A stretch of DNA of 64,000 bases, taken from NCBI RefSeq assembly GCF_037042905.1, contig NC_087250.1:6884001-6948000 (forward strand), given 5' to 3'. The stretch's first letter is position 1; each line of letters begins with the position of its first letter. The notes beneath the pieces were generated by a model, which saw nothing but the letters and a program-made list of their open reading frames with translations, was not told the DNA's origin and searched no databases. The stretch is from Lytechinus pictus. Its lineage: Eukaryota. The translations under genes and the position numbers were made by a program. Below, one piece after another: positions 373-47,445 of this stretch.

Positions 373-374
<2 letters not shown>

Positions 375-409
<35 letters not shown>
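375..409. repeat. (CT)n microsatellite
   Basis: Directly visible ctct tract. Confidence 0.95.
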
Positions 410-411
<2 letters not shown>

Positions 412-19300: not shown

Positions 19301-19912
19301 TACTGTACGTAGAATGTGTCAAACATTAAATGACTGTTTCAAACCTTACGCATGTAGATGAGGTAATTTTTGTTTGTATTTTACGTCATCATATTCTTTC
19401 ATCATGTTATTTTAAAGCAATTTAGGTGATATTTGGTTGCTATGGCAATGGCCTAAGATGATATATATACATAGAAATGAGCACTGCTATAATATGTTAA
19501 GCACCATAAGTTAGGGTAAGTTAGGGTAAATGAAAGAAAAGTCAAAATCTACAATTTTATTATAAAAATTTGGTCTTTTCTAGGTGAATAATGAGTGGTT
19601 GCCATGGCAACGGGGTAATTGGAACTGTTTTGATGACCTCAAATATTTGTAAATTTCACTTGTAATTAATTGGAAGCTTGAAATTGATAAATTGAATGAT
19701 TTATACCATGTTTATTTACCATTTACAGGGGTATATATGTGGTTTTTGAGAAATTAATCCGTTGCCATGGCAACGGTCGAAGACGAACCCGGTTTGGGTG
19801 GCTCCCCTTCTAAAATCAAAAGTTAGTCCATTAGGAAGCTCTGTGCCAAAAATGGTGCTTTTATCCGCTCTGTAACGGTAATCCAAAAAATTGACCCTTA
19901 GCCACCCTACTA
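13385..19912 (+). mobile_element. AcademX-type DNA transposon, internally deleted and frameshifted
   Basis: Termini tagtggggtggctaag / cttagccaccctacta and 3-bp TSD TAA (13382-84, 19913-15). Near-identical ~950 bp TIRs. Coding remnant has transposase-like, XPG/FEN1-like and Cys-rich regions, the architecture described for AcademX. Confidence 0.85.
15140..18463 (+). pseudogene. Academ transposase-XPG-Cys-finger polyprotein pseudogene (about 4 frameshifts, N-terminus missing)
   Basis: Consecutive ORFs 15216, 15608, 16188, 16744 and 17468 in different frames. Motifs GISISY, ALDNLD, TFDQPL, GGLH, NYARW, DQAHEQ; then ILDG, VWDSY, HEEADTR, DTDV, GCDTTSAF (FEN1/XPG-like); and C-terminal CSCRGNCSNC...CSPLCK. 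Confidence 0.85.
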
Positions 19913-19957
19913 TAAGACGGCTTCAAAAAAATGAAGTTTGAAATGGCTGTTGATATA

Positions 19958-20807
19958 CAGTGCGTCCCAGAAAAAACGAAACCGAGATTAAGCGATGATT
20001 CATCATAACTTAATCACAATGCAATAGACAAATGACCTACCAATGTAAAGCTTGGAGTCTCCTCTTTTATCTGATATTACTTAAATTATTCCTCTTTCGC
20101 GCATGAGTGAGCAAAAAAAAATGAAGAGGGGATACCAAAAAGTTTAAGTTCAATATCTGCTCTTTTATTTGATACTTTAATTAAAAAAAAATGGTCGAGT
20201 AAAACAGTTATGTTCCCTCATTTTGCGGGCTGTATCTGGGTGTCAAAAAGAAAACCACATTTCTAAAAAGTTCAATATCTGTTCTTTAAACTGATACCTC
20301 AATTGACAGAAATGGTCAAGAAATAGGTTCTGGTTATTTGAAATAAGGCTTGAATTTCAATAATTTCATAAAATGAAGAGGTTTTATAGGCTAGCGTTCA
20401 AACTCACTCGACACTCCGTTTTGTTGATGATCAGCCATGCATTAAATATTTTGTTAACCATGCGATAGCATGAAAACACGTTAATTTGGAACATAACTTT
20501 TTTACTCCTTGACCATTTTTTTGTGTGATTAAAGTATCAAATAAAAGAGCAGATGTTGAACTTTTGAAACATGTGGTTTTATTTTTGAAATCCAGATACA
20601 GCCTGTTAAAAAAATGTTTGGCATCCCCTCTTAATTTTTTTTTTGCTCACTCATGCGTGAAAGAGGAATAATTTAAGTAATATCAGATTATAGAGGATAT
20701 TCTAAGCCTTACAATGGTAGGTCATTTATCTATTGTCAGATTGTATTTGTGATTAATTTATGATAAATCACCGATAAATCTAGGTTTCGTTTTTGTGGGA
20801 CGCACTG
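19958..20807. mobile_element. Tc1/mariner-like MITE
   Basis: TIR cagtgcgtccca...aaaaacgaaacc / ggtttcgttttt...tgggacgcactg extending over 200 bp. TA on the left; right flank is tt. Confidence 0.7.
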
Positions 20808-22354
20808 TTTATAAATGGACATAGCTCATTTCATATCCGTCTCGGATATATGATTTTGGTGTTTAGACCATGGTTTCAATAGTCAAATAATACAATATGA
20901 CAAATTAAACGGACAGTCAGTTGTCCAGTTGTTCAAAAAATCCAAGATGGCTTCCAAAAATGGAGTAAAAAATAGCTGTTGCTACATTAAAAAACACGTA
21001 GTTTGATTAATATCCTGGAATATGTTTATGCCATGGTTAAATGGGTCAAACAATACATTAGGACAAATTACAAAGACAGTCAGTGGTCAAATATGTCCAA
21101 AAATCCAAGGTGGCCTCCAAATATGGAATATAAAATGGCCCCTGTTACTAACAAATGGACATATTTCGTGTAATATCTGCCAAGGGTATATCATTTTGAA
21201 TCTAAACCATGGTTTTAAAAGTCATTAAATACATCATGTACATTGGAACAAGTTACATGGACAGTCAGTAATCCAGTGTGTCTAAACATCCAAGATGGCT
21301 TCCAACAATTGCAGTCTAATCGGAGTCTGTTACTTAAAAATTGACATAATTTATTTAAAATCCACCAAGGAAAAACGATGTTGGTGTTCACACTTTGGTT
21401 TCAAATATAAAAAAATTAGTTGAGACTGGTTACAATGATATCCAGTTGTCCATTTTGCCTAAAAATCAAAAAGGGTTTTCAAAATGGCATGTACAATGAC
21501 TTCTATCACTATCACTTTCATTAGGACAAGTAACAATGATGGTTAGTTTTCAGTTTTGTCGAAAATCTAAGGTAGGTTTTAAAATTACATACTAATGGGT
21601 GCTGTTACCAACTCTTATCTGCTTGCATTTTGAATGTAGGCACCAAAATTATCTCTCACAGGTGGATATTATATCCACTTCAAAGTAATGGTCTTCATTT
21701 TCAGAACCCATTTATGGAAGCCATCTTAGATTTTCAGGAAAAATGGACAATTGTAACCAGTCCTAAAGTATAATTTGATCCTTGAAATCCTAGTGTAGAC
21801 ACCAAAATAACATCCCCAGGTTTATTTTTAATGTACTAGGTCCACTTTTAAGTAACATTATAAAAACCCATTTTTCAAGCCATCTTTGAATTTTTCGACA
21901 CAATTGACACCTGACTGTCCTTTCAAATTGACCAAATGTACAGTTTATATTACTTGACCCTTTGAATACTAGTGTAGACACCAATCATATCCCAATAGTA
22001 TATTATCAGTGAACTATATGTCCATATTGAAGTAACAACAGTCAATTTAGACCCCTTTTTGGAAGCCATCTTGGATGTTTTAACATACCAGTCCACTGAC
22101 TGTCCTTGTAACTTGTTCTTATGCATTAAACCATGGTTTTATGATTGTGGTTTATATGAGGCGCCGAATGTACCAATATTATATAGAACAATTATTTGTT
22201 ATATAATCATTATTTATTAAATAATAACTATTATTTATATATAATTTACATTTTATTTGTAAATAACTACTATTATATAAAATATCATTTCTAATTATTT
22301 ATATATAATTCCAAGTAATACTTCATTATTTGTAAATAATAATAGTTCGACATT

Positions 22355-22745
22355 CCATTATTTATAAATAATGATTATTTGTTTTTCATTATTTATAAAT
22401 AATGATTATTTGTTTTTCATTATTTATAAATAATGATTATTTGTTTTTCATTATTTACAAATAATGATTATTTGTTTTTCATTATTTATAAATAATGATT
22501 ATTTGTTTTTCATTATTTATAAATAATGATTATTTGTTTTTCATTATTTACAAATAATGATTATTTGTTTTTCATTATTTATAAATAATGATTATTTGTT
22601 TTTCATTATTTATAAATAATGATAATTGGTTTTTCATTATTTATAAATAATGATTATTTGTTTTTCATTATTTACAAATAATGATTATTTGTTTTTCATT
22701 ATTTATAAATAATGATTATTTGTTTTTCATTATTTATAAATAATT
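22355..22745. repeat. 31-bp AT-rich minisatellite (~12 copies), left arm
   Basis: Unit cattatttataaataatgattatttgttttt, containing the 18-bp palindrome cattatttataaataatg. Confidence 0.9.
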
Positions 22746-25684
22746 TGTTGAGTTTTCCATTATTTATAAATAATGATTATTTGTTAAATAATGAAAACGT
22801 CTACTTCATTATTTATAAATAATTTTTTCGAGTGCACCATTATTCTCATTATTTATAAATAATCATTATTTAATGTTCGAGTTTTCCATTATTTATAAAT
22901 AAAGATTATTTGTTAAATAATGAAATATCTACTTCATTATTTATAAATAATAATTTTGTTTCAATATCCCATTAATCATTATTTATAAACAATTTTTACA
23001 GTTTGCCATTATATACAAATAATCATTATTTATATACAAATAACCATTATTTATTAAATAATGCCATTATTTATTAAATAATGCCATTATTTATTAAATA
23101 ATGGAAAACTCGCTATAACATGCAAATGTGGGACCGCCCATGATATGAATATTCATGATGCGATTTCCTTTTTCGTAATTTTTCTTCACAAATTTTTGTC
23201 CATTTCCTCTTCATAATGACATTTCTTGAAGCAATTTTCTAGGGATATGGTCTGATTGTAATATTCTTCATTTTCTATATAACTTCGTCTTCGTAGAAAT
23301 ATCAAAAAGTGTAATTTTATACGATTTTTCCTACAGTTCACAATCCCCATAGGCGCGCGTGTACGGTAGGGACAACCGGTGAATCGACGGAGTGCTCTTC
23401 ATCGAAATACTACGTTGGTTGGTCCCCGGAAGTGGCGGGCGGAATTTAGCCCGAATCCTCGATGGAAGTCGATCAAGTGCATATGAGCTGAGAGAGTGAA
23501 ATATCAGTGTACTTGTACAGGCCCTTCTACTTTTTATAAATATTTCTTGTTGCTTTTTTTGTTAAGTTAATTTTTCCTGGTGTAGAGATAAGTTTCAGTT
23601 CTAATAATGCACTTCAAATACATTTTGGAGTGTCTGTTTGAGGCGTTTGGGGCGATTTCACCCTGGCCCCAAAATGCTCGCAACGACAATACGGGGGCAT
23701 GATGACCCCTAAATTTTTAAAAACTTATTTTTCTATTGAAAATTATCACAAAATTCACCAAAAGTGTGCACGAAAGCCTTCGTATTTCACTTTTAAAACT
23801 CCAAAAAGTGCCCAAATGACAAGCTTGGTCGCTTCGCTGTGTCGCTTTCAACTTGAGAAAGTTTACGCGTCTGCTTCCCCCCCCCTCCTCCGAAAGAAAT
23901 TATGTATACGGCCATGCTCTAAAGAGCCTGGCACATTGATTTATGTATACTTCATTTTCATTATTTTTATCTCATTATCATCATGGCCTTACGCAGAATT
24001 TTTTCCGGGGGGGGGGGGGTGGGGGGAGCAGGACGCGCGTAAACTTTCTTATAAAAATCTTGAAAAAGCGAAGCGACCAAGCTTGTCATTTGAGCTTGGT
24101 CGCGTCGCTGTCTCGCTTTCAAGATTTTTTTGAGAAACTTTACGCGCGTCCTAGCTGCTCCCCCCCCCCCCCCGGTAAAAATTCTGTGTAAGGCCATGAT
24201 GATAATGTGATAAAAATAATGAAAATGAAAAGTACATATAAATCAATGTGCCATATGCTCTTTTGAGCATGGCCGTTCACAGAATTTCTTTCGGGGGGTG
24301 GGGGCAGACGCGCGTAAACGTTCTCAAGTTGAAAGCGAGACAGCGAAGCGACCAAGCTTGTCATTTGGGCTTGGTCCCGTGGCTGTCTCGCTTTCAAGAT
24401 TTTTTTGAGAAAGTTTACGCGCGTCATGCTCCGGCCCCCCTGGAAAAAATTCTGCGTAAGGCCATGTTGATAATGAGATAAAAATAATGAAAATGAAAGT
24501 ATACATAAATCCATGTGCCGGGCTCTTTAGAGCATGGCCGTATACAGAATTTCTTTCGGAGGAGGGGGGGGGGGATATATCGAAGCAGACGCGTAAACGT
24601 TCTCAAGTTGAATGCGACACAGCGAAGCGACCAAGCTTGTCATTTGGGCACTTTTTGGAGTTTTAAAAGTGAAATACGAAGGCTTTCGTGCACACTTTTG
24701 GTGAATTTTAAAAATTTAGGGGTCATCATGCCCCGCGTATTGTCGTTGCGAGCATTTTGGGGCCAGGGTGAAATCGCCCCAAACGCCTCAAACAGACACT
24801 CCAAAATGTATTTGAAGTGCATTATTAGAATTGAAACTTATCTCTACACCAGGAAAAATTAACTTAACAAAAAAAGCAACAAGAAATATTTATAAAAAGT
24901 AGAAGGGCCTGTACAAGTACACTGATATTTCACTCTCTCAGCTCATATGCACTTGATCGACTTCCATCGAGGATTCGGGCTAAATTCCGCCCGCCACTTC
25001 CGGGGACCAACCAACGTAGTATTTCGATGAAGAGCACTCCGTCGATTCACCGGTTGTCCCTACCGTACACGCGCGCCTATGGGGATTGTGAACTGTAGGA
25101 AAAATCGTATAAAATTACACTTTTTGATATTTCTACGAAGACGAAGTTATATAGAAAATGAAGAATATTACAATCAGACCATATCCCTAGAAAATTGCTT
25201 CAAGAAATGTCATTATGAAGAGGAAATGGACAAAAATTTGTGAAGAAAAATTACGAAAAAGGAAATCGCATCATGAATATTCATATCATGGGCGGTCCCA
25301 CATTTGCATGTTATAGCGAGTTTTCCATTATTTAATAAATAATGGCATTATTTAATAAATAATGGCATTATTTAATAAATAATGGTTATTTGTATATAAA
25401 TAATGATTATTTGTATATAATGGCAAACTGTAAAAATTGTTTATAAATAATGATTAATGGGATATTGAAACAAAATTATTATTTATAAATAATGAAGTAG
25501 ATATTTCATTATTTAACAAATAATCTTTATTTATAAATAATGGAAAACTCGAACATTAAATAATGATTATTTATAAATAATGAGAATAATGGTGCACTCG
25601 AAAAAATTATTTATAAATAATGAAGTAGACGTTTTCATTATTTAACAAATAATCATTATTTATAAATAATGGAAAACTCAACAA

Positions 25685-26074
25685 ATTATTTATAAATAAT
25701 GAAAAACAAATAATCATTATTTATAAATAATGAAAAACAAATAATCATTATTTGTAAATAATGAAAAACAAATAATCATTATTTATAAATAATGAAAAAC
25801 CAATTATCATTATTTATAAATAATGAAAAACAAATAATCATTATTTATAAATAATGAAAAACAAATAATCATTATTTGTAAATAATGAAAAACAAATAAT
25901 CATTATTTATAAATAATGAAAAACAAATAATCATTATTTATAAATAATGAAAAACAAATAATCATTATTTGTAAATAATGAAAAACAAATAATCATTATT
26001 TATAAATAATGAAAAACAAATAATCATTATTTATAAATAATGAAAAACAAATAATCATTATTTATAAATAATGG
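25685..26074. repeat. 31-bp minisatellite, right arm (reverse complement)
   Basis: Mirror image of 22355-22745, including the variant units. Confidence 0.9.
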
Positions 26075-28084
26075 AATGTCGAACTATTATTATTTACAAA
26101 TAATGAAGTATTACTTGGAATTATATATAAATAATTAGAAATGATATTTTATATAATAGTAGTTATTTACAAATAAAATGTAAATTATATATAAATAATA
26201 GTTATTATTTAATAAATAATGATTATATAACAAATAATTGTTCTATATAATATTGGTACATTCGGCGCCTCATAGGTTTAGGCATCAAAATCATATTTCC
26301 CAGACAGATATTGAACAAAATATGTCCTAATCTATTATTTGACCCTTGAAACCATGGTTTAAATATCAGAATCACATCTCACAGGCGGATATAGAATGAG
26401 CTATGTAAATTTTTAAGTAACAACAGTCAATTTTAGACCCAATTTTTGTAAGCCATCTTGCGTTTTTTTAACATACCAGACCACTGATTGTCCTTGTTAC
26501 TTTTCCTAATACATTACTTCACCCTTTAAACTATGGTTTAGACACTGAAGTAATATTCCCCTGACAGATATTGATCAAGCAACATTAGAGATTGTTTTAC
26601 ACCTTTTTTTGGAAGCAATCTTGAAATTTTGGACATACTAGACCACTGACTGTCCGTGTATATGGTGTAGCATGTCCTAATGTATTATTGGTCTTTGAAA
26701 TCATAGTTTAGAACCAAAATCATATCTCACAGAAGATTATAAAATGAGCTATTCCACTTTTAAGTATCAGCACCCATTTTTAGAGTCATTTTTGAATACC
26801 ATATTGGATTTTCGGACATACTTGTCGTTGTAACTTGTCCTAATGTCCTAATATTATTAGACTCTTGAAACCAATGATTTTGACACTAAAATCACATCCC
26901 CCAGGCTAATATGAAATGAGCTACGTCCGCTTTAGGTATCAGCAACCATCTTTGATTCAATTTTTTGAAGCCATCTTGGTTTTTTGGACATTCCAGACCA
27001 CTGGCTATCCCTGTAACTTGGCCTAATGTACTACTCCTTAAAACCAATGAATAGAAACCAAATTAAAGCCACTTTATCAAGTAATGGATGAATTGTGGAT
27101 TTTTAACCTACGGCAGCCATCTTTGATTTTCCTGTTACCCTGGAGTGCTTAAATTCTTTTTAACCTTTCAACCAGTAAGGGTATTTTCGATCGTATATTG
27201 ACAGGCCTACATATCATGTACAATAACCAGTGAATAAATTACACTTCATGTTGAATAGATTCATATGTTACTTTAAAAATTATCAGGGTATTTCAACATT
27301 TTCTTCGTCAAAATCAGTAGTGTAGTTTTGAGGGGGGTGTCTGGAAAACGAAGACCGAAGACCGAAGACCGGGGACTCATATCACACTCGTGTGAAAGCG
27401 TTTGTAGTTCACGCCCGAAGTGTGTACAAAGCAGTGCAAAGTGTGTACAAAACACGTGCGCGGGTTAGAATGGACTTTGGACCTTACCCGACACATGTTC
27501 TCCCATTGACAATGCACGGGTCCCCGGTCTTCGATCTTCGTTTTCCAAACCCGCTGTTGGGTGTCTGGAAAACGAAGACCGAAGACCGGGGATCGCATTC
27601 GTTTAGCTAAGATACCACTTATAAATGTCATTATGAAGGCCTCTATTATTCAGCTCAAATTCAAGAATATTCTGATCTAGAATACATTAATGTCATTAAT
27701 TAGCTGATAATGAAGTCATGTTAATTGCTAATTGTGTCAATAATTAGTATAGTTAGACCAGTTGAAGCGGGATAGGTCTCCCAGTTTTCACCACTATTCC
27801 ACTGAGACAAGTAACAAACTCCAGTAATCAATCAGACCAGTTTCAAATTTCCAGTTAAAGGTTAACTCTAGACCAGTAATTTCAGACCAGTTTAATTCTT
27901 AACTGGTCCAGTAAAGTGAACTCGACCAGTTAGACCAGTATGCCGTTTTTCCATTTTCCAGAATTACATTCTGTGAACTGGTTTTTCCTTAATTCTTAAT
28001 TGGCTGACATTAATTTGCAATTTTACTACCATTGACATAACACATGTCCCCGGTCTTCGGTCTTCGTTTTCCAAACCTGTTGTT

Positions 28085-31000
28085 GGGTGTCTGGAAAACG
28101 AAGACAGAAGACCGGGGATCGCGTCAATTCGTCTAGCTAAGATAGGCCTATAATATTCAGCACCAGTTCAAGAATATTCTGATCTTGGATACGTCATCAG
28201 CTATGATTGGCTGCGGATAAGTTATTGTTATTTGTGTGAATATCGTTATCAGCTAGGGCATGATATTAAGGATAGCGTACATATTTCACCCATGGAATTC
28301 AGCCATTGCAATTCTGAAAACTGTCATAAAACTGAAAACTTGCATACAATACACCTCATTCTGCGCAATCACGTAAAGCAGACTCAACTCAACTGGCGTT
28401 TGCAACTATTTTATACTACCATTGACATTACGCATGTCCCCGGTCTTCGGTCTTCGTTTTCCAAACCTGTTGTTGGGTGTCTGGAAAACGAAGACAGAAG
28501 ACCGGGGATTGCGTATTCGTCTAGCTAAGATAGGCCTATAATATTCAGCACCAGTTCAAGAATATTCTGATCTTGGATACGTCATCAGCTATGATTGGCT
28601 GCGGATAAGTTATTGTTATTTGTGTGAATATCGTTATCAGCTAGGGCATGATATTAAGGATAGCGTACATATTTCACCCATGGAATTCAGCCATTGCAAT
28701 TCTGAAAACTGTCATAAAACTGAAAACTTGCATACAATACACCTCATTCTGCGCAATCACGTAAAGCAGACTCAACTCAACTGGCGTTTGCAACTATTTT
28801 ATACTACCATTGACATTACGCATGTCCCCGGTCTTCGGTCTTCGTTTTCCAAACCTGTTGTTGGGTGTCTGGAAAACGAAGACAGAAGACCGGGGATTGC
28901 GTATTCGTCTAGCTAAGATAGGCCTATAATATTCAGCACCAGTTCAAGAATATTCTGATCTTGGATACGTCATCAGCTATGATTGGCTGTGGATAAGTTA
29001 TGGTTATTTGTGTGAATATCGTTATCAGCTAGGGCATGATATTAAGGATAACGTACATATTTCACCCACGGAATTCAGCCATTGCAATTCTGAAAACTGT
29101 CATAAAACTGAAAACTTGCATACAATACACCCCATACTGCGCAATCACGTACAAGCAGACTCAACTCAACTCGCGTTTGCAATTATTTTACTACCATTGA
29201 CATTATGCATGTCCCCGGTCTTCGGTCTTCGTTTTCCAAACCTGTTGTTGGGTGTCTGGAAAACGAAGACAGAAGACCGGGGATTGCGTATTCGTCTAGC
29301 TAAGATAGGCCTATATAATATTCAGCTCCAGTTTAAGAATATTCTGATCTTGGATACGTCATCAGCTATGATTGGCTGCGGATAAGTTATGGTTATTTGT
29401 GTGAATATCGTTATCAGCTAGGGCATGATATTACTAAGGATAACGTACATATTTCACCCACGGAATTCAGCCATTGCAATTCTGAAAACTGTCATAAAAC
29501 TGAAAACTTGCATACAATACACCTCATACTGCGCAATCACGTAAAGCAGACTCAACTCAACTGGCGTTTGCAACTATTTTATACTACCATTGACATTACG
29601 CATGTCCCCGGTCTTCGGTCTTCGTTTTCCAAACCTGTTGTTGGGTGTCTGGAAAACGAAGACAGAAGACCGGGGATTGCGTATTCGTCTAGCTAAGATA
29701 GGCCTATAATATTCAGCACCAGTTCAAGAATATTCTGATCTTGGATACGTCATCAGCTATGATTGGCTGTGGATAAGTTATGGTTATTTGTGTGAATATC
29801 GTTATCAGCTAGGGCATGATATTAAGGATAACGTACATATTTCACCCACGGAATTCAGCCATTGCAATTCTGAAAACTGTCATAAAACTGAAAACTTGCA
29901 TACAATACACCTCATACTGCGCAATCACGTACAAGCAGACTCAACTCAACTCGCGTTTGCAATTATTTTACTACCATTGACATTATGCATGTCCCCGGTC
30001 TTCGGTCTTCGTTTTCCAAACCTGTTGTTGGGTGTCTGGAAAACGAAGACAGAAGACCGGGGATTGCGTATTCGTCTAGCTAAGATAGGCCTATAATATT
30101 CAGCTCCAGTTTAAGAATATTCTGATCTTGGATACGTCATCAGCTATGATTGGCTGTGGATAAGTTATGGTTATTTGTGTGAATATCGTTATCAGCTAGG
30201 GCATGATATTAAGGATAACGTACATATTTCACCCAAGGAATTCAGCCATTGCAATTCTGAAAACTGTCATAAAACTGAAAACTTGCATACAATACACCCC
30301 ATACTGCGCAATCACGTACAAGCAGACTCAACTCAACTGGCGTTTGCAATTATTTTACTACCATTGACATTATGCATGTCCCCGGTCTTCGGTCTTCGTT
30401 TTCCAAACCTGTTGTTGGGTGTCTGGAAAACGAAGACAGAAGACCGGGGATTGCGTATTCGTCTAGCTAAGATAGGCCTATAATATTCAGCTCCAGTTTA
30501 AGAATATTCTGATCTTGGATACGTCATCAGCTATGATTGGCTGCGGATAAGTTATGGTTATTTGTGTGATTATCGTTATCAGCTAGGGCATGATATTAAG
30601 GATAACGTACATATTTCACCCACGGAATTCAGCCATTGCAATTCTGAAAACTGTCATAAAACTGAAAACCTGCATACAATACACCTCATACTGCGCAATC
30701 ACGTACAAGCAGACTCAACTCAACTGGCGTTTGCAATTATTTTACTACCATTGACATTATGCATGTCCCCGGTCTTCGGTCTTCGTTTTCCAAACCTGTT
30801 GTTGGGTGTCTGGAAAACGAAGACAGAAGACCGGGGATTGCGTATTCGTCTAGCTAAGATAGGCCTATAATATTCAGCTCCAGTTTAAGAATATTCTGAT
30901 CTTGGATACGTCATCAGCTATGATTGGCTGCGGATAAGTTATGGTTATTTGTGTGAATATCGTTATCAGCTAGGGCATGATTAATAAGGATAGACAATTA

Positions 31001-34000
31001 TAATGTACATATTTCACCCACGGATTTCAGCCATTGCAATTCTGAAAACTGTCATAAAACTGAAAACTTGCATACAATACACCCCATACTGTGCAATCAC
31101 GTACAAGCAGACTCAACTCAACTGGCGTTTGCAACTATTTTACTACCATTGACATTACGCATGTCCCCGGTCTTCGGTCTTCGTTTTCCAAACCTGTTGT
31201 TGGTGTCTGGAAAACGAAGACAGAAGACCGGGGATTGCGTATTCGTCTAGCTAAGATAGGCCTATAATATTCAGCACCAGTACAAGGATATTCCGATCTT
31301 GGATACGTCATCAGCTATGATTGGCTGCGGATAAGTTATGGTTATTTGTGTGAATATCGTTATCAGCTAGGGCATGATTAATAAGGATAGACAATTATAA
31401 TGTACATATTTCACCCACGGAATTCAGCCATTGCAATTCTGAAAACTGTCATAAAACTGAAAACTTGCATACAATACACCCCATACTGCGCAATCACGTA
31501 CAAGCAGACTCAACTCAACTCGCGTTTGCAATTATTTTACTACCATTGACATTATGCATGTCCCCGGTCTTCGGTCTTCGTTTTCCAAACCTGTTGTTGG
31601 GTGTCTGGAAAACGAAGACAGAAGACCGGGGATTGCGTATTCGTCTAGCTAAGATAGGCCTATATAATATTCAGCTCCAGTTTAAGAATATTCTGATCTT
31701 GGATACGTCATCAGCTATGATTGGCTGCGGATAAGTTATGGTTATTTGTGTGAATATCGTTATCAGCTAGGGCATGATATTACTAAGGATAACGTACATA
31801 TTTCACCCACGGAATTCAGCCATTGCAATTCTGAAAACTGTCATAAAACTGAAAACTTGCATACAATACACCTCATACTGCGCAATCACGTAAAGCAGAC
31901 TCAACTCAACTGGCGTTTGCAACTATTTTATACTACCATTGACATTACGCATGTCCCCGGTCTTCGGTCTTCGTTTTCCAAACCTGTTGTTGGGTGTCTG
32001 GAAAACGAAGACAGAAGACCGGGGATTGCGTATTCGTCTAGCTAAGATAGGCCTATAATATTCAGCACCAGTTCAAGAATATTCTGATCTTGGATACGTC
32101 ATCAGCTATGATTGGCTGTGGATAAGTTATGGTTATTTGTGTGAATATCGTTATCAGCTAGGGCATGATATTAAGGATAACGTACATATTTCACCCACGG
32201 AATTCAGCCATTGCAATTCTGAAAACTGTCATAAAACTGAAAACTTGCATACAATACACCCCATACTGTGCAATCACGTACAAGCAGACTCAACTCAACT
32301 CGCGTTTGCAATTATTTTACTACCATTGACATTATGCATGTCCCCGGTCTTCGGTCTTCGTTTTCCAAACCTGTTGTTGGGTGTCTGGAAAACGAAGACA
32401 GAAGACCGGGGATTGCGTATTCGTCTAGCTAAGATAGGCCTATAATATTCAGCTCCAGTTTAAGAATATTCTGATCTTGGATACGTCATCAGCTATGATT
32501 GGCTGTGGATAAGTTATGGTTATTTGTGTGAATATCGTTATCAGCTAGGGCATGATATTAAGGATAACGTACATATTTCACCCAAGGAATTCAGCCATTG
32601 CAATTCTGAAAACTGTCATAAAACTGAAAACTTGCATACAATACACCCCATACTGCGCAATCACGTACAAGCAGACTCAACTCAACTGGCGTTTGCAATT
32701 ATTTTACTACCATTGACATTATGCATGTCCCCGGTCTTCGGTCTTCGTTTTCCAAACCTGTTGTTGGGTGTCTGGAAAACGAAGACAGAAGACCGGGGAT
32801 TGCGTATTCGTCTAGCTAAGATAGGCCTATAATATTCAGCTCCAGTTTAAGAATATTCTGATCTTGGATACGTCATCAGCTATGATTGGCTGCGGATAAG
32901 TTATGGTTATTTGTGTGATTATCGTTATCAGCTAGGGCATGATATTAAGGATAACGTACATATTTCACCCACGGAATTCAGCCATTGCAATTCTGAAAAC
33001 TGTCATAAAACTGAAAACCTGCATACAATACACCTCATACTGCGCAATCACGTACAAGCAGACTCAACTCAACTGGCGTTTGCAATTATTTTACTACCAT
33101 TGACATTATGCATGTCCCCGGTCTTCGGTCTTCGTTTTCCAAACCTGTTGTTGGGTGTCTGGAAAACGAAGACAGAAGACCGGGGATTGCGTATTCGTCT
33201 AGCTAAGATAGGCCTATAATATTCAGCTCCAGTTTAAGAATATTCTGATCTTGGATACGTCATCAGCTATGATTGGCTGCGGATAAGTTATGGTTATTTG
33301 TGTGAATATCGTTATCAGCTAGGGCATGATTAATAAGGATAGACAATTATAATGTACATATTTCACCCACGGATTTCAGCCATTGCAATTCTGAAAACTG
33401 TCATAAAACTGAAAACTTGCATACAATACACCCCATACTGTGCAATCACGTACAAGCAGACTCAACTCAACTGGCGTTTGCAACTATTTTACTACCATTG
33501 ACATTACGCATGTCCCCGGTCTTCGGTCTTCGTTTTCCAAACCTGTTGTTGGGTGTCTGGAAAACGAAGACAGAAGACCGGGGATTGCGTATTCGTCTAG
33601 CTAAGATAGGCCTATAATATTCAGCACCAGTACAAGGATATTCCGATCTTGGATACGTCATCAGCTATGATTGGCTGCGGATAAGTTATGGTTATTTGTG
33701 TGAATATCGTTATTAGCTAGGGCATGATTAATAAGGATAGACAATTATAATGTACATATTTCACCCACGGAATTCAGCCATTGCAATTCTGAAAACTGTC
33801 ATTAAATCTGAAAACTTGCATACAATACACCCCATACTGTGCAATCACGTACAAGCAGACTCAACTCAACTGGCGTTTGCAACTATTTTACTACCATTGA
33901 CATTACGCATGTCCCCGGTCTTCGTTTTCCAAACCTGTTGTTGGGTGTCTGGAAAACGAAGACAGAAGACCGGGGATTGCGTATTCGTCTAGCTAAGATA

Positions 34001-34103
34001 GGCCTATAATATTCAGCACCAGTTCAAGAATATTCTGATCTTGGATACGTCATCAGCTATGATTGGCTGCCGAAAAGTTATGGTTATTTGTGTGAATATC
34101 GTT
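28085..34103 (+). repeat. ~388-bp tandem satellite, 15 full units plus a partial, with a 2349-bp 6-unit higher-order duplication
   Basis: Recurrent pseudo-ORF starts at 28232, 28620, 29008, 29397, 29788, 30175, 30562... Pairs 29397/31746, 29788/32137, 30175/32524 and 30562/32911 are all offset by 2349. Confidence 0.95.
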
Positions 34104-34259
34104 CACATCCAAGATGACGAGATACGATATCTCGCCAAGTCGACTTATAAAAGGTCATATATGTCGACATGGCGAGATAACGTATCTCGCCATGTCGACA
34201 TTATGTCGACATGGCATAATTAAGTTTCTCGCCAAGTCGATGGCAATTAAAACATGTAA

Positions 34260-34840
34260 AATGGATGGTCCTCGCTGAAAATATTTATACCTTAATACAT
34301 AGAGAAGAATTCACTGAGCAATGTGCCGAAAATTTCATCAATCGTATAACAAGTAAACAGTTATTGAAGTTTAAAGTTTAGCAATATATTGTTAAAACAG
34401 TCGTCGTGAATATTCATTAGGTGGGCTGATGATGTCACATCTCCACTCTCCGTTTCCCTATGTTATTTTATATAATCATAATTTTTACATTATTTCATAT
34501 TTGTGCTAATAATATGTCTCCCTTATAATGAAATAAGTTGCAGCAAATAAATATTTAATGCACTAAATCAGTTGCCAATCCAATTTTTCTACATTTTTGT
34601 TCTTGGATGAAAACATTTGAATAAACCTAATTTCATATAATAAAATACAAAAGAACAAGTGGAGATGTGACATCATCAGCCAACCTAATGAATATTTATG
34701 ACGACTGTATTCACAAAATATTGCTAAATTTTAAAATTCAATAACTTTGTTATCCGATTTTGATGAAATTTTCGGTATTTTGCTCAGTGAATTTTACTCT
34801 ATTCATTAAGCTATACATGCTTTCAGCCCGGACCATCCCT
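34260..34840. mobile_element. Kolobok-like MITE
   Basis: ggatggtcctcgctgaaa / tttcagcccggaccatccct followed by TTAA; internal inverted gctgatgatgtcacatctccac / gtggagatgtgacatcatcagc. Confidence 0.6.
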
Positions 34841-35510
34841 TTAAAGGCTCCGTATAAAATAAACCTAATTGTAATAGAAAGCAATGTCATCGACCTAAGA
34901 CAGGTGGCAAGCGTGCCTTTGTAGAATGCTGTTGCCGGTATGCGATGTTTTCTATACGGTCGGCGCACATGAAACACAAGTGCGTCGCTTGTATACTACT
35001 TTGCGGTTAAACCCGAGACGTTCCCACGCGTACATTTCGAGAGCAACAATTCAGTACGCGTTTGGAAGAAAATTACCCTGTTTGCACGTGCATCGGCTTT
35101 TGGTTCAGAACCAAAAGCCGATGAAGAATTGGCTTTTGGTCTATCTTGCACCGCAGAATCGGCTTACGTACCTCTTTGGGAATCGACGGGCGGACGACAT
35201 TTGGATCTCTTAGTCTCGCCTTCACCTCTTGCGGGCGAGACAAACAATGAGAAAGAGAAGGAAGAAAGGAGAAAGGAAAAGGGCCAATAATTGGAATGAT
35301 CAAACAAATCTAATCATCCTGAAATTGGGCCTACTAATAAACAAGTGAGAAAGGGGTTAGAAATAAAGAGATGGCAAAGTGGAACGGAAATTTTAGGCGG
35401 GAAAGGGAAGGAAGAGAGGCCAAAATAAACGGGATGCGAAAATGCTAACATGAAATCGGAATAGAAAACAGAAAAAACAAGAGGGGAAAAGAAAGAAATT
35501 AAGAACACAA

Positions 35511-36820
35511 CAGCTAGTGGCGTAGCTACGGGGGGGGGGCTGGGATTTGGTGTGCCCCCATCAGGTGCCCCGCCTGGAAAAAAATTGGTAGAGCAGAAAA
35601 AAAGGGAGAAAGAAGAAAAGAAAAAGAAGAAGAAAGACAGAAGAAAAAAGAAGAAGAAAGACAGAAGAAAAAAGAAGAAGAAAATAAGAGGAGGGAGACG
35701 AATGAATGAAATAATGTGAGGGGAAGACTTGCCAAAAAAGAAACAATTCTTTCATGTTACTATAAAAAATCTTTGCTTGCGCTTCGCGCCAGAATTGACT
35801 GTTCGATGAGATTCATATCTTGCTCAATAGGCTGATATGGAGCAAGTTTTGAAGTCATTATACAAAACATAATTAGCTCGGACATCGAGCTTTCAATATT
35901 TTTTTCATTTACAAATTTAAGTGCTCTGTAAAATGTCCGTTTTATTGTCCACATATCAGCATTTTTTTTTAAAGCTCACGCTGCGTGGTCACATTGTTTG
36001 ATTTGCCAAGTTCCTATTGTCTACATGTATTCCATAATGTTCCATTAAAGAAATATATTCAGAATGCCCAGATTCTAGGTCTAAATCTAAAACATGCGCG
36101 ATAGCATGCATGTTCTTTATTTAAAATCTACTTGAATTATCCAGTTTCACATCAGAATATAAATAATTGTCTGCTCGCGCTTTACGATAGCATAATTAAT
36201 GATACCCAATTAACTATATCCTATTTATGATTTACAAAATATGAATAGTGTCCCGCTTTTAGGTCTAAAATCTCAATTTTTTTCCTCTCGCGCTTCGCGC
36301 TCGCATCCATTGTTTCGTTACATACCTATCCCATTTATTGATACAAAAAGTGCTTAGAATTACCATTCTTTTAGGTCGGAATGTCAAAAAAATTGCATTA
36401 TTGAAATATTTACCATCTTCGTGGGTACCTATATAAGTGCACTTAACAGGTCCCTTTTCGATAATGCTAGAACAGTTAATAAAAATTTCTGCTCGCGCTT
36501 GGCGTTCGCAGTAACCATCTAGTTACTTACGAATCTTGATCGGGATCACACATAACATTGCCCAGAATATTACATGAAAGTAACAAATAAAAAAAATCGC
36601 TCGCGCTTCGCGCTCGCACTTTTTATAATGCTTATGAGATTATTTCATGTTTATGCTGTTTTATAAGAATATAACGAAGAAGTGACTGATCGGGAAAAAT
36701 ATAGGTGAAGATAATTTCGGGCCCTTGTGACAAGTACACACCGGATAAAAATGGTGCCCCCCTGACTCAAAGCAAGGACCCCCAGTGCCCCCCAGGAAAA
36801 AAATCCTAGCTACGCCACTG
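35511..36820. mobile_element. Non-autonomous hAT-like element
   Basis: TIR core gtggcgtagcta / tagctacgccactg and 8-bp TSD gaacacaa (35503-10, 36821-28). Interior gctcgcgcttcgcgctcgc units are homologous to 3825-7349. Confidence 0.8.
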
Positions 36821-37029
36821 GAACACAACCGGGATACCGAGGTTGAAAATAAAGAACGGTAAGAAAGACTCGGCTGGTGTGTGGGTATGACGTGTATATA
36901 ATAGCCTATTTTGATTTCACGCAACTAGCCGCAATCATAAGGGGACACAAATTAGTGAACTTCAAGATATCGCCCAACCACTGCCGATGATCCTATCCAG
37001 GGGACAGACCGCTCTTCACACCATGATAT

Positions 37030-38505
37030 GAAGCGGCGTAACAGGGGTCGGTGGCCAGGGGCGGGGGGGGGGCGGGCAAGAGCCAAATATTTCCTGGTCA
37101 CATTATATGGTATAAACAGGCGTAATGAGCCGACACTATTTTGAGAAGGCCAGATATTGTGCATCGGACAGAATTTATCTTTAAAAAAATGCGAGCGAGC
37201 AAAATTTTTGACCTTTTTAATACAAAAATACAATTTTGTGATAGATTTTGACATGATGTCCAGAGAATGATATTTCACTCTTCTCTCTTTGGATTCCTTT
37301 TTTGTCGTCTGTACGCGCACTGTGAACAGGATTCTTTGCGGCTGTAACGTGAAGAGTAAAAAAAAAAAAAAAAACAGGGGTGGAGTATACCACATGTGCT
37401 AAAGAAAGCTGTTTTATATCAGTCCCGAGCGAAGCGAGCGAGAAAAAAATCACCTTTTCATGAGAATCTAACTTTGAGCTATTTTTTGACATTATATTCA
37501 GTAAATAAAATCATATCCTACACTTTTCCTCTGCTTTTTTTGCGTTTTTGTTTGTACAACTTTTTGGGCCCATGGCCCAACACTTCCATACGCAGTGATG
37601 TGCGGTTGGGGTCCGGGGCGGAGCCCCCTGAAAACTTCTTGATATCAAAGCCATTTAAACCTCGCAGATTGCCGCTATTTTAATCAAATCGCATTCTACA
37701 TAGACTATAGCTTTTACACAACACATTTATTCAACCCAGTTGCGTAACGAACCAAATATTTATAGGGCAAAGCATACCAACGTGGGAAAAAAATTGTAAA
37801 AAGTCGCTAGCGTGCAAAGTGAGCTGGAAAAAAATTGCCTATTGAAATTAAATTCTAATTATGTGATATATTTTCCATTATATTCAGCAAATAACACATT
37901 TCATTGTCCATTCATTTCATTATACTTTGTCTCCTATAATTTCTTTTTTTCCCTCTTGGGTGTGGAACACCCCCCCCCCCCCTAGCAAAATCTAGCAAGC
38001 TTATAACACAATGTTGTATGCAGACCATCTTTCTTCCCGCTCTTTTCAATCATCGGCAGCCCGGTCGTGTTATTATTTTTTTCTTGTCCTTTTTCCCTTG
38101 TATTTTTTTCCAATTTAGCTTTTGATTAATTACGTTCTACCTTCGTTTCCCGCTCTTCATACCATTTTGTTATCTTTTAAATTATTTCCCACCGTGCTAT
38201 TGCATTACATAGGCCTATTTCGGAATGATGTGTTCTTTCTCAAATGTTCTTCTTTCGTATATTTTCCCGCTTTCCTTTCTTTTCCATTCAAAAAAAAAGT
38301 TTTTTTCTTCGTTTTCTTTTTAATTTTCCCTTTCCTTTTCCTCCTTTCCTTTTCCCATTTCCTTCCCCATTTCCCTTTCTTTCTTTCTCCCTCCCTTTTT
38401 TCTTTTTCCCGTTTTTCTTAATTACGCCACTGATGATAATGACCGGGAATTTTCTGGCTCTCGTCCCCCCCCCCTCCCCTGGCCACCGAGCGCTGCTACG
38501 TCCCT
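37030..38505. mobile_element. Degenerate TIR element, hAT-like
   Basis: tcggtggccagggg...agagcca...ggtca inverted against tgacc...tggctct...cccctggccaccga; TSD not resolved. Confidence 0.5.
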
Positions 38506-38704
38506 GATTCTATGTAAGCATCTATTAATTGCATGCATTTTTTCAGTTTGAAAATTTGTTTTCTTTAAAAACGATATGACAATTTCATGAAATATTGTAT
38601 CCACGTATATCGGTTGTTTTAAGGTCTGTTTATCAGCCAGCATGAAGAAAACGAAGTACAATTGCACGGAAACGTGTCCATAGCACGCTATATGTGGTAA
38701 TTAG

Positions 38705-41171
38705 CTTGACGAATGAAATCCCCGGTCTTCTGTCTTCGTTTTCCAGACACCCAACAACAGGTTTGGAAAACGAAGACCGAAGACCGGGGACATGCGTAAT
38801 GTCAATGGTAGTAAAATAGTTGCAAACGCCAGTTGAGTTGAGTCTGCTTGTACGTGATTGCGCAGTATGAGGTGTATTGTATGCAAGTTTTCAGTTTTAT
38901 GACAGTTTTCAGAATTGCAATGGCTGAATTCCGTGGGTGAAATATGTACGTTATCCTTAATATCATGCCCTAGCTGATAACGATATTCACACAAATAACC
39001 GTAACTTATCCGCAGCCAATCATAGCTGATGACGTATCCAAGATCAGAATATTCTTAAACTGGAGTTGAATATTATAGGCCTATCTTAGCTAGACGAATA
39101 CACAATCCCCGGTCTTCTGTCTTCGTTTTCCAGACACCCAACAACAGGTTTGGAAAACGAAGACCGAAGACCGGGGACATGCATAATGTCAAAGGTAGTA
39201 TAGTTGCAAACGCCAGTTGAGTTGAGTCTGCCTGTACGTGATTGCGCAGTATGAGGTGTATTGTATGCAAGTTTTCAGTTTTATGACAGTTTTCGGAATT
39301 GCAATGGCTGAATTCCTTGGGTGAAATATTTACGTTATCCTTAATATCATGCCCTAGCTGATAACGATATTCACACAAATAACAATAACTTATCCGCAGC
39401 CAATCATAGCTGATGACGTATCCAAGATCAGAATATTCTTGAACTGGTGCTGAATATTATAGGCCTATCTTAGCTAGACGAATTGACGCGATCCCCGGTC
39501 TTCTGTCTTCGTTTTCCAGACACCCAACAACAGGTTTGGAAAACGAAGACCGAAGACCGGGGACATGCGTTATGTCAATGGTAGTAAAATTGCAAATTAA
39601 TGTCAGCCAATTAAGAAGGAAAAACCAGTTCACAGAATGTAATTCTGGAAAATGGAAAAACGGCATACTGGTCTAACTGGTCGAGTTCACTTTACTGGAC
39701 CAGTTAAGAATTAAACTGGTCTGAAATTACTGGTCTAGAGTTAACCTATCTGGAAATTTGAAACTGGTCTGATTGATTACTGGAGTTTGTTACTTGTCTC
39801 AGTGGAATAGTGGTGTAAACTGGGAGACCTATCCCGCTTCAACTGGTCTAACTATACTAATTATTGACACAAGCAATTAACATGACTTCATTATCAGCCA
39901 ATTAATGACACTAATGTATTCTAGATCAGAATATTCTTGAATTTGAGCTGAATAATAGAGGCCTTCATAATGACATTTATAAGTGGTATCTTAGCTAAAC
40001 GAATGCGATCCCCGGTCTTCGTTTTCCAGACACCCAACAACAGGTTTGGAAAACGAAGACCGAAGACCGGGGACATGCACAATGTCAATGGTAGTAAAAT
40101 AGTTGCAAACGCCAGTTGAGTTGAGTCTGCCTGTACGTGATTGCGCAGTATGAGGTGTATTGTATGCAAGTTTTCAGTTTTATGACAGTTTTCGGAATTG
40201 CAATGGCTGAATTCCTTGGGTGAAATATGTACGTTATCCCTAATATCATGCCCTAGCTGATAACGATATTCACACAAATAACAATAACTTATCCGCAGCC
40301 AATCATAGCTGATGACGTATCCAAGATCAGAATATTCTTGAACTGGTGCTGAATATTATAGGCCTATCTTAGCTAGACGAATTGACGCGATCCCCGGTCT
40401 TCTGTCTTCGTTTTCCAGACACCCAACAACAGGTTTGGAAAACGAAGACCGAAGACCGGGGACATGCGTTATGTCAATGGTAGTAAAATTGCAAATTAAT
40501 GTCAGCCAATTAAGAAGGAAAAACCAGTTCACAGAATGTAATTCTGGAAAATGGAAAAACGGCATACTGGTCTAACTGGTCGAGTTCACTTTACTGGACC
40601 AGTTAAGAATTAAACTGGTCTGAAATTACTGGTCTAGAGTTAACCTATCTGGAAATTTGAAACTGGTCTGATTGATTACTGGAGTTTGTTACCGTGTCTC
40701 AGTGGAATAGTGGTGTAAACTGGGAGACCTATCCCGCTTCAACTGGTCTAACTATACTAATTATTGACACAAGCAATTAACATGACTTCATTATCAGCCA
40801 ATTAATGACATTAATGTATTCTAGATCAGAATATTCTTGAATTTGAGCTGAATAATAGAGGCCTTCATAATGACATTTATAAGTGGTATCTTAGCTAAAC
40901 GAATGCGATCCCCGGTCTTCGGTCTTCGTTTTCCAGACACCCAACAGCGGGTTTGGAAAACGAAGATCGAAGACCGGGGACCCGTGCATTGTCAATGGGA
41001 GAACATTTGTCGGGGTAAGGTCCAAAGTCCATTCTAACCCGCGCACGTGTTTTGTACACACTTTGCACTGCATGCTTTGTACACACTTCGGGCGTGAACT
41101 ACAAACGCTTTCACACGAGTGTGATATGAGTCCCCGGTCTTCGGTCTTCGGTCTTCGTTTTCCAGACACCC
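38705..41171 (-). repeat. Right arm of the foldback element: modules A-B-C-B-C-C read from the terminus
   Basis: Reverse-complement copies of left-arm modules; B+C block repeated at an 899-bp offset (ORFs 39457 and 40356). Confidence 0.9.
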
Positions 41172-42801
41172 GTTTTGAGGGGGCCAGATACATGTATGAG
41201 AGCCAGATATCGAGAAAAAATCCTTTGAAACAGTTGTCAGCGAGTCCAGCGAGAGAGCACAACTTTCGAAATTTTTCAATGCAACAATAAAATTTGGTAA
41301 AAGAGTTTGGGTATAATATTCGTAAAATAATCATATTTCATCAATCTCTCTTTCACTTTCTCTTTATTGGTAATGATTTATTTAGGGGGGAGTAGGGTTG
41401 CACAATTTCCCGGGAATTTTCCATGGGAATAAACGGGAATTTTGTGGGAATTTCTTGAATTTTTGGAAATTTTCAGGAAATTTCAAGAAATGATGGTTAT
41501 TTACAAAAAAGTAACAATTTTCTGATAATTATATGCATGAATTGAAAGGCGTACCATAAAAAATGATGCTTTCCAACATTGTTTGTTATTAAATTTAATT
41601 CAAGCATTACCATGGCAACATAATTTTTATCTTCATAAGATATTCCTGCAGAACACTTTCTGTATTTTAGTTCAAATGAGGGGGTCGAAACTTAAGCATA
41701 CGGATTAAGTCAATTCCAATTGTATTTTCCACCTGTTCATTGTCTTGTCAACCATGCTATTTTTGTAAATTAGAAGTTATTTGGTTGCCATGGTAATGTC
41801 TGTAGATGTTATTTACACTTTTAGCAACCACAATACATTTGTTTACGAACTTGAAAATTAGGGGAAATCAAAGCTAAATCATATTCTTTTTTTATATTTT
41901 TTATTTTTCTGGGGTAAAACAAGCCGTTGTCATGGCAACGGACCAATTGGAACTATCTTGGTGATCTTGAATATTTCTTAATTTCATATAAATTCAATTG
42001 GGAACCTGAAAATTATCATTTTCGTCGTCTATATCACGTTTATTTACCATTTACATCGGAATGTATTTTATTTTGGAGAAATTAATCCGTTACCATGGCA
42101 ACGGCCGAAAATGGCATTTATAAATTTACCTCCCATCTTTAAAATAAATATTGCAGCATACTAACACTTGTGAAAGTTTCAGGCTTTAGTCATAATTTGC
42201 ACAATTGTTCGGCTTATCCGCTCTACTATTACACCAAACTTAATATAAACACCCTTCAAGGGCTCAATAAATGATTAGCCTGTTTTACGTTATTTTAAGT
42301 TCAACAGTAGTTAATTCGATGATGCTTTCAGAATGGTTTTCTATCATCATTAGTCCAATGTATGTACATTCTCTTTAATTCTCTTATTCTAAATTCATAT
42401 CGCAATGACGTGATGACACATTATTGCAGATGACTATTCCCAACACTATTTAATTATGGTATTTGATATTAAACTAAAAACGAACCATATTCTTCCAGAT
42501 TTTTATTTTTTATTTATCTATTATTATTATTATTTTTTTTTTTTTTGGGGGGGGGCAATTCGAATGAAGTCTAACGTTGCTTTGTTTATTGCCTCCATGG
42601 CAACGGCGATTTTTCTTTCTTCAAGATATATCTGTTCTCTTATGGTTTATAGTTAATGGTTATAATAATGATACGAGTTACATATTGCTTGTAATGTGAT
42701 TCGAATTATATTTCTGATCATTATGATCACGATGATAACTCTATCAGTGATGTAATATATTTTGATCGCCAAATACATCTTTTCTGAAGCATCACACTGT
42801 A

Positions 42802-46812: not shown

Positions 46813-46942
46813 TCACCTTTGATTTATGTATTATCGCGTTTTTTCGGGGGGGGATATTTATGTTTTCACGACATGCATGAAAGATGTGAAGAATAATCTT
46901 GTCCCAAAATTATCCGTCTTTTCTATTTATATTTTCATTCAG

Positions 46943-47445
46943 ATAATCAAATGTTGTCTGTCTTCTGAGATGACTTCTAGAATGTGGCCATGTCTCAGAT
47001 CTGTCACCTCACTGAAGCATCTTACCATCTTAGACTCATCTCTCAGTTTCCCTCCATCACTTCCTGAGCTACCATCGGTCACAAAACTATCACCCGAGAG
47101 AGTGACGTCGCAAAGCTATAATGGTCTAATCTCATCGCTCCCTGGTCTGGAAGGTATTGATATCACGATGGATGACGCGGAGGGAGACATTGCTCGTTAC
47201 TCCGCTGTTCTTCGTCTGACAGCAGGGCAGAAACTCAAACACATATATCTATGTGGTCCGCCATCACCTTCATCAGAGAGGAGCCGTGTATCGAGAGAGA
47301 CAATGAGAGGACTGGGTCAGGTCATCAAAGAACATACACAGAACCTGGTGTCGCTCTATCTGAAATGGGTGACGTGGACAGACGAGAATGACTTAGTTTA
47401 CCTTATCGACTGCTGCAGACGTGTGAAGACGATGCAATACGTTTC
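46943..47445 (+). CDS. Large LRR-encoding exon of probable NLR-type receptor gene
   Basis: Within ORF 46826..47449. Acceptor ttcattcag, donor gtaagt (phase 2). Motifs VTSLKHLTI, LPGLEGIDI, QKLKHIYL, QNLVSLYL. Confidence 0.85.

Follow-up and report, generated by a model that had tools for sequence, protein, structure and literature searches.

The window analyzed here, a 64,000-nucleotide (64-kb) stretch of Lytechinus pictus DNA (contig NC_087250.1, positions 6,884,001 to 6,948,000), contains at positions 27335-41171 a gene-less element of 13.8 kb with the layout of a foldback transposon: two long inverted arms, 6.8 kb on the left (27335-34103) and 2.5 kb on the right (38701-41171), separated by a middle domain. 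The arms are chains of modules of three types, which we call A, B, and C, and every junction between modules carries a palindrome built from the terminus of the element itself. The features of the element and of the target-site duplication (TSD) that flanks it are as follows, in window coordinates.

27325-27334, unstranded: left TSD, GTTTTGAGGG, read directly from the sequence and identical to 41172-41181
27335-41171: foldback element, 13.8 kb
27335-27558, plus strand: left module A, 224 bp; head with three GAAGACC heptads, inverted ends of 32 nt with 88% complementarity
27559-28084, plus strand: left module B, 526 bp; inverted ends of 30 nt with 97% complementarity, interior rich in AGACCAGT words
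28085-34103, plus strand: left C array, 15 full units (387-398 bp) and a 161-nt partial C ending at about 34103
34104-38700, unstranded: middle domain, 4.6 kb, non-coding
38701-41171, minus strand: right arm, inverted A-B-C-B-C-C and a partial C
38701-38752, minus strand: right-arm partial C, about 52 nt
38753-39139, minus strand: right-arm C, third
39140-39525, minus strand: right-arm C, second
39526-40035, minus strand: right-arm B, inner (B2)
40036-40424, minus strand: right-arm C, outer
40425-40942, minus strand: right-arm B, outer (B1)
40943-41171, minus strand: right-arm A
41172-41181, unstranded: right TSD, GTTTTGAGGG, read directly from the sequence

For at least 45 nt, the sequence at one end of the element is the exact reverse complement of that at the other. 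Both ends are formed by the same G-rich motif, which we refer to as the head, and the arms stop at an identical base of it. As the first-pass annotation of this locus had proposed, one 10-bp TSD flanks the whole. Read literally, the direct repeat at the two ends is 12 nt long, with GG following GTTTTGAGGG on either side; because the ends are symmetrical and every internal head has three Gs, we set the length of the TSD at 10 bp and the terminus at 27335. A 10-nt match at a given position would arise by chance with a probability of about 1e-6. No paralogous empty site was found within the window, where the flanks at 27036-27334 and 41172-41568 have no contiguous counterpart elsewhere.

All 25 matches in the window to the terminal 21-mer of the head, GGGTGTCTGGAAAACGAAGAC (up to three mismatches), lie within the element, 18 on the plus strand (27335 to 33943) and 7 on the minus strand (38732 to 41171), in opposite orientation in the two arms. 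Exact copies make up 24 of the 25, the other having one mismatch, and none of 100 dinucleotide shuffles reached the observed count (shuffle mean 0.01). Two of these heads are the termini of the element and 23 mark internal junctions. Recurrence of the terminus at each module junction had been claimed previously and holds for 23 of 23 internal heads, the number being somewhat higher than the earlier estimate of about 20. Each internal head is preceded by a second motif, the tail (CGTTTTCCAAACC; 17 copies on the plus strand and 6 on the minus strand), and a 7-bp spacer, such that the junction as a whole reads tail, spacer, head and is palindromic. Elsewhere in the 64 kb, neither head nor tail occurs. 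Of the 23 junctions, 21 have the spacer TGTTGTT and the other two, both of them A/B junctions, have CGCTGTT. For example, the junction at 28047-28117 (unstranded; tail, TGTTGTT, head) reads TCCCCGGTCTTCGGTCTTCGTTTTCCAAACCTGTTGTTGGGTGTCTGGAAAACGAAGACAGAAGACCGGGG and has a predicted DNA folding energy of -31.3 kcal/mol; the junctions range from -31 to -35 kcal/mol, with the A/B hairpin at -35 kcal/mol.

The two halves of the palindrome are not equivalent. The tail is complementary to positions 5-34 of the head only (30-32 nt, 88-97%), and nothing in it corresponds to the outermost GGGT of the head. Thus, the earlier statement that the modules are bounded by copies of the terminus holds for the heads and fails for the tails. 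The constant segment of each unit is about 140 bp long (tail about 65 nt, spacer 7 bp, head about 55 nt), and its core, a palindrome of 2 x 33 bp, repeats the terminal 33 bp of the element. When the 18 full C units are compared, variation affects 1 of 33 columns in the head and 7 of 33 in the tail, as compared with 4-11 per 50 in the interiors. That the head is the least variable part of the C units is compatible with constraint or conversion, though suggestive only (P of about 0.05, an estimate).

The spacing of the heads gives the order of the modules. In the left arm, the spacings are 224 (A), 526 (B), and then 15 units of 387-398 (C); in the right arm, read from the outside in, they are 229 (A), 518 (B), 389 (C), 510 (B), 386 (C), and 387 (C). 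These values agree with the arrangement originally read from the sequence, A-B-C x15 on the left and inverted A-B-C-B-C-C on the right, to which a partial C must be added in each arm. Independently, Tandem Repeats Finder counts 15.6 copies of a 387-bp unit (96% identity) in the left arm and 2.3 copies in the right. All modules are non-coding, measure 224-526 bp, and have inverted ends of 30-32 nt with 88-97% complementarity. Three module types can indeed be distinguished, but they are not the wholly different cargoes that had been described, as A, B, and C have starts and ends in common. B and C are alike over 106-127 nt at the start (about 72%) and 64-74 nt at the end (91-97%), with about 110 and 70 nt of shared sequence beyond the inverted ends, and A has its first 30 nt and last 59 nt in common with both (85%).

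How the arms have changed can be read from the identities among their modules. Between arms, the outer modules (A/A, B/B1, C1/C1) are 97.2-97.4% identical: left A matches right A at 97.4%, and left B matches right B1 at 97.2% and right B2 at 96.0%. Within the left arm, the C unit pairs L04/L10, L06/L12, and L07/L13 are each 100% identical, L08/L14 are 99.7% identical, and L05/L11 are 99.5% identical. The left arm thus carries a duplicated block of six units, about 2.35 kb long (C units 4-8 versus 10-14), and at 99.5-100% identity, as against about 97% between the arms, this duplication postdates the divergence of the arms. In the right arm, B1 and B2 are 98.1% identical and C1 and C2 are 98.2% identical, which reflects duplication of a B-C block and accounts for the order A-B-C-B-C-C. 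Growth of the arms by transposition of modules is thus not supported; both arms show block duplication instead (L04-L08 versus L10-L14 on the left, B-C on the right), and arm growth is not documented as insertion of single modules. The arms grow, shrink, and reshuffle their modules by unequal exchange or slippage between identical junctions, in a satellite-like manner. Consistent with the usual definition of a satellite, the array is tandem and head-to-tail, has at least 15 units, and shows higher-order structure.

The middle domain contains small palindromes (34164-34240 and 34259-34842), simple repeats, and pieces of other dispersed repeats of the window; pieces similar to 3880-7242, for example, are nested at 35629-36690. 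It has no stop-free frame over 148 amino acids, and none of its 18 stop-free frames has a Pfam match at the curated cut-off. Sub-threshold matches (DUF3720, MazG-like) are weak and fall on low-complexity or short frames, and a search of the whole 64-kb window against Rfam gave no matches. Because the middle domain lacks coding capacity, this copy of the element is non-autonomous.

Contigs assembled from public sequencing runs allowed us to view the modules outside this locus. Part of 26300-28084 was contained in 11 runs from 5 studies. Logan contigs of runs X1, X2, X11, and X4, which represent four studies and three coded organism labels, were aligned to 26300-28474, a segment comprising the flank and one each of A, B, and C. 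Contigs were accepted from 85% identity, parts at low depth are left uninterpreted, and the summed contig depths listed below are not equivalent to copy number.

Junction bin (28052-28124): X2, 629,761; X4, 460,279; X1, 32.7; X11, 261.4
A interior: X2, 97,521-111,589; X4, 79,231-85,558; X1, about 10; X11, 20-31
C interior: X2, 3,938-29,790; X4, 2,642-20,834; X1, about 31; X11, 185-251
B interior: X2, 286-3,075; X4, 59-1,026; X1, about 7; X11, 57-134

A, B, and C were all present in 4 of 4 runs, and X1 yielded near-identical contigs, with 2 differences in 255 nt of A, 3 in 504 nt of B, and 5 in 417 nt of C. The run contigs break at the junctions. Depth of A greatly exceeded that of C, and C that of B, in the organism labeled B; in X1 and X11, C exceeded A. 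Since summed depth is far greater at the junction than in any module and the proportions of A, B, and C vary from one organism to another, the order A-B-C is not one into which the modules are locked. Moreover, at 28117, 28019, 27614, and 28144, loose contig ends show the same conserved head and tail attached to interiors of other kinds. In a qualitative sense, then, the contigs of the four runs bear out the expectation that the modules would be found in other proportions and contexts and that further module types would be found on the same ends. A single-base variant at position 27554, in the A/B spacer, was found in 15 contigs of X2 and carries nearly all of the depth there; this means that a spacer is passed on together with its junction and is not made anew at each joint. 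The very high summed depth in X2 and X4 is compatible with free-standing satellite arrays, without demonstrating them.

The same alignments bear on the left boundary of the element, the only one covered. In X1 (one record) and X11 (two records), contigs that resemble the left flank at 90-93% identity cease to match at 27335/27336, beyond which they carry 112-145 nt of unlike sequence. This break fits insertion into a repeated flank family, and we take it as a hint of insertion rather than as an empty site. The junction pattern was found at no locus in metagenome contigs, and the terminal 21-mer at no locus in viral contigs. Ten metagenome loci with a 19-mer of the head were set aside as chance, BLAST of A+B+C having matched a seed of 19-25 nt only, and a lone 21-mer in a Halobacillus contig, the one locus in prokaryote genomes, was also taken as chance.

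On balance, we consider it likely that 27335-41171 is one insertion of a non-autonomous, foldback-type cut-and-paste DNA transposon whose arms are satellite-like arrays of units. The element has the long inverted arms of tandem repeats, and the discrete identical ends with a TSD, by which the foldback class (FB, Tetris, Galileo-like) is recognized. It probably belongs to the Mutator lineage, as judged from one 10-bp TSD and the G-rich end. A TSD of 10 bp, from this single insertion, lies within the span of about 8-11 bp expected of Mutator-like elements (MULEs), FB and Rehavkus included, and the earlier suggestion that G termini with a 9-10 bp TSD fit MULE or foldback elements agrees with the TSD and ends seen here.

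Several points weigh against this reading or parts of it. First, one full copy and one TSD were seen, from which we infer both mobility and superfamily, and a 10-bp TSD is no unique proof of Mutator affinity. Second, Rehavkus foldbacks, with which the element shares terminal inverted repeats (TIRs) and subterminal tandem repeats, are tabulated with a 9-bp TSD and a PHD-finger transposase (Table 1 of PMC6446971); here the TSD is 10 bp, from one insertion and with its boundary set by end symmetry. Third, the argument from abundance, being based on contig depth, holds qualitatively only. Finally, module abundances are uncoupled in organism B, where A far outweighs C and C far outweighs B; another possible explanation is that A-type units move or amplify by themselves, which would favor the first-pass view.

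The first-pass annotation did not recognize the architecture from any described family. Foldbacks with tandem-repeat arms, repeats that include a portion of the terminal domain or further transposase sites, and MULEs with tandem TIRs are, however, in print (PMC4079207, PMC12581902, PMC3688188, PMC5499845, PMC3310237). The general architecture, in which a foldback with tandem-repeat arms seeds satellites, is already known, and the element described here is an unusually tidy example of it, not a new kind. A close parallel in layout is Tetris of Drosophila virilis, a non-autonomous foldback whose TIR comprises an outer domain, a variable number of repeats of about 220 bp, and an inner domain, with a non-coding middle and TSDs of 8-10 bp (PMC4079207). 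The TIR-220 repeats of Tetris have a stretch of 37 bp (about 80%) in common with the terminal domain and occur as free satellite arrays as well, and the outer domain of Tetris is common to an abundant miniature inverted-repeat transposable element (MITE), DAIBAM (PMC4079207). The element at 27335-41171 resembles Tetris in its tandem-repeat arms, its non-coding middle, a TSD within the 8-10-bp range, and repeats that share terminal sequence; and where the Tetris outer domain is shared with an abundant MITE, module A is here the most abundant part in organism B. Unlike in Tetris, the whole terminal 33 bp recurs here at about 100%, in both orientations and as a palindrome, at every unit boundary, and three unit types share one junction. 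The hosts differ, and we saw no sequence relationship between the two.

Rehavkus foldbacks, a Repbase group, have in Tribolium tandem-repeat arms of more than 11 kb, with up to 50 repeats that undergo concerted evolution and can expand into satellites, expansion to 80 kb being reported (PMC12581902). A palindromic terminus dyad at the repeat boundaries is not mentioned in the passages seen of PMC12581902 and PMC6446971. Muta1, a MULE of Aedes aegypti described as a 'type 2 foldback', has a terminal motif starting GGGTCT and TSDs of 8-9 bp; its subterminal repeats are needed for cleavage in vitro, and more repeats raise both transposase binding and excision in yeast (PMC5499845). With its GGG-initial terminus, and a TIR composed of a terminal motif and reiterated subterminal repeats, Muta1 is the functional model that we adopt. 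The Muta1 repeats are nevertheless 12 bp, direct, and distinct from the terminal motif, in a TIR of only 145 bp, whereas here the terminal motif itself is present, as an inverted pair, in every one of the 224-526-bp units.

Plant MULEs with tandem TIRs carry extra full TIR copies inside both ends, with no TSD around the internal TIRs; they are still mobile, and most are non-autonomous (PMC3310237). In those elements there is one extra TIR per end, in direct tandem, as compared with 17 and 6 extra heads here, each with an inverted tail. Galileo, a foldback-like element of the P superfamily, has long repetitive TIRs, the tandem repeats of which provide secondary sites bound by its THAP domain (PMC3688188). 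The Galileo sites are short words rather than copies of the whole terminus, and its superfamily is different from the Mutator lineage that we favor. A full copy of the terminus and its inverse, arranged as a palindrome of about 70 bp at every boundary of at least three unit types, was not found in the passages of the cited papers, though the Tribolium supplement (Figs S14 and S16) or the Repbase entries for Rehavkus might show such junction details. A literature search for the terminal 14-mers gave no match.

Based upon Muta1 and Galileo, a mechanism can be proposed for the movement of the element. By analogy with the subterminal repeats of the former and the TIR repeats of the latter, a transposase supplied in trans by a coding relative, probably a Mutator-like one in view of the 10-bp TSD and the GGG ends, would bind the reiterated dyads cooperatively. 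Cleavage would be expected at outward-facing heads, the sole copies with the terminal GGGT, and the tails, which lack it, would more likely be binding sites than cleavage sites. Any head of the left arm and any head of the right arm would then form a potential pair of ends, and because any such pair could serve, arm length could change on transposition. Elements of this sort can also give rise to free satellite arrays, which is documented for Tetris and Rehavkus.

We weighed several alternatives. The first keeps the foldback transposon and changes the enzyme: the element may have been moved by a non-Mutator transposase, P/Galileo-like, Merlin-like, or of an unclassified superfamily. A single TSD length and the lack of a visible transposase leave some room for this. 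TSDs of 9-11 bp are characteristic of Mutator-like elements, whereas those of P, hAT, and Merlin elements are 7-9 bp, and that of Galileo is 7 bp. In addition, the GGG-initial terminus resembles the Muta1 terminal motif with its GGGTCT start (PMC5499845). We regard a non-Mutator transposase as unlikely.

A second alternative, which was also the thrust of the first-pass annotation, is that the modules are independently mobile MITEs. The arms would then have arisen by serial or tandem insertion, or by tandemization, either after double insertion or from circular excision products, and the composite would transpose from its inner and outer ends alike, a carrier of cassettes that gives rise to satellites. 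Each module does have inverted ends (30-32 nt, 88-97%), A is of MITE size at 224 bp, module abundances are uncoupled between organisms, with A far above B and C in X2 and X4, and the loose contig ends point to extra interiors on the same ends. There is also precedent, in that tandemization of whole transposable elements as a source of satellites has been reviewed (PMC12628747) and tandem dimers arising via double insertion have been proposed as satellite seeds (PMC5932611). Yet the anatomy of the junctions does not support the modules as complete MITEs. None has a TSD of its own; B, for example, has CGCTGTT at one boundary and TGTTGTT at the other. The spacer is the same at 21 of 23 junctions and is 7 bp long, whereas a copy of a target would be variable and 10 bp long; and the tail is without the terminal four bases, GGGT, of the head. 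Furthermore, the homology of B and C extends well past the inverted ends, the growth that is documented is duplication of multi-unit blocks, and the window holds no copy of head or tail, and no solo module, outside the element. Independent mobility of the modules is therefore, in our judgment, rather improbable.

It is more doubtful again, in our estimation, that the junctions constitute a cassette system, in which the tail-spacer-head dyad is an exchange site where transposase or cruciform-guided host recombination adds, removes, or swaps modules. If this were true, one junction of about 140 bp would carry many interiors, and foldback carriers would assemble and move chains of modules. Head-tail pairs would be usable as ends and single modules would be mobile, and species-specific satellites would have been seeded, A-type in organism B and C-type in organisms A and C. 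Lastly, we dismiss as highly improbable the possibility that there is no transposon but a local satellite array with a palindromic inversion or duplication, an unrelated middle, and a coincidental 10-bp repeat, an account that suits the higher-order repeats, the unequal arm lengths, and the repeat-rich surroundings, which include another perfect foldback at 22155-26274, but not the termination of both arms at the same base of the same head motif, the outermost A and then B on both sides at about 97% identity, the perfect 10-nt direct repeat (12 nt with the ambiguous GG) abutting both ends, or the break of flank-like contigs (90-93%) at 27335/27336, as expected for insertion.

Read as one insertion of a foldback transposon, the element does not overturn current understanding. 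Foldback transposons are a documented route from mobile element to satellite DNA, as in Tetris and Rehavkus, and this copy shows the route legibly. Its repeat units are bounded by the element's own end in the form of an exact inverted pair, and three types of unit have that junction in common. The block duplications, younger than the divergence of the arms, show that the array has evolved as satellites do while still part of a transposon whose TSD is intact. The run contigs suggest that related organisms differ widely in how far the junction and each of the modules have been amplified. Given a genome assembly and the cognate transposase, the family would be well suited to asking whether reiterated full termini enhance binding or serve as alternative sites of cleavage, and how the shuffling of modules leads to satellite turnover.

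The window contains other repeats and transposons. One kb upstream lies a second foldback-like element, at 22155-26274, with arms of 1543 nt (22155-23697 and 24732-26274) that are 100% complementary and enclose a 1034-nt loop. Its arms contain AT-rich 31-bp tandem repeats; that they pair perfectly suggests that the element is very young or that the assembly has produced the effect. A 6-bp direct repeat, GGTTTA, on both flanks points to a superfamily other than that of the element at 27335-41171. The DNA flanking this second foldback (20809-22128 and 26319-27035) belongs to one repeat family, at 65-84% identity and in both orientations, which is highly represented in the public-run contigs; because of these flanks, both foldbacks can be said to sit in a repeat-rich, satellite-like neighborhood.

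Further to the left, a DNA transposon of about 6.5 kb (about 13385-19910) has TIRs of about 0.9 kb that are 98-99% identical (13406-14309 versus 18977-19881), with termini unlike those of the 27335-41171 element. Overlapping stop-free frames on its plus strand (15141-18463) span about 3.3 kb (about 1,100 codons), and their final part is a Cys-rich, CXC-like tail. None of five frames had a Pfam match, and no PDB sequence matched below E = 0.07; the ESM Atlas neighbors of the open reading frame are 'hypothetical protein' clusters of Arthropoda, Cnidaria, and Mollusca. The product may be a transposase of a poorly described superfamily. A short array of units of about 375-385 bp at 11644-13240, to the left of this transposon, is 83% identical, as reverse complement, to 41569-42209, which lies 400 bp to the right of the foldback element, and by this resemblance another tandem-repeat family in the window is tied to long-TIR elements.

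Non-long-terminal-repeat retrotransposons are represented by reverse-transcriptase fragments at 2320-3652 (RVT_1, E 1.7e-11 and 6.6e-17), and a frame at 53678-54190, which has no Pfam match, resembles a reverse-transcriptase tail. Finally, two stop-free frames, 9938-10360 and 46823-47449, encode similar leucine-rich-repeat-like sequence (LTSLNHLTISDSSLSF and VTSLKHLTILDSSLSF); neither has a Pfam match, and they may be exons of paralogous host genes that flank the repeat cluster.

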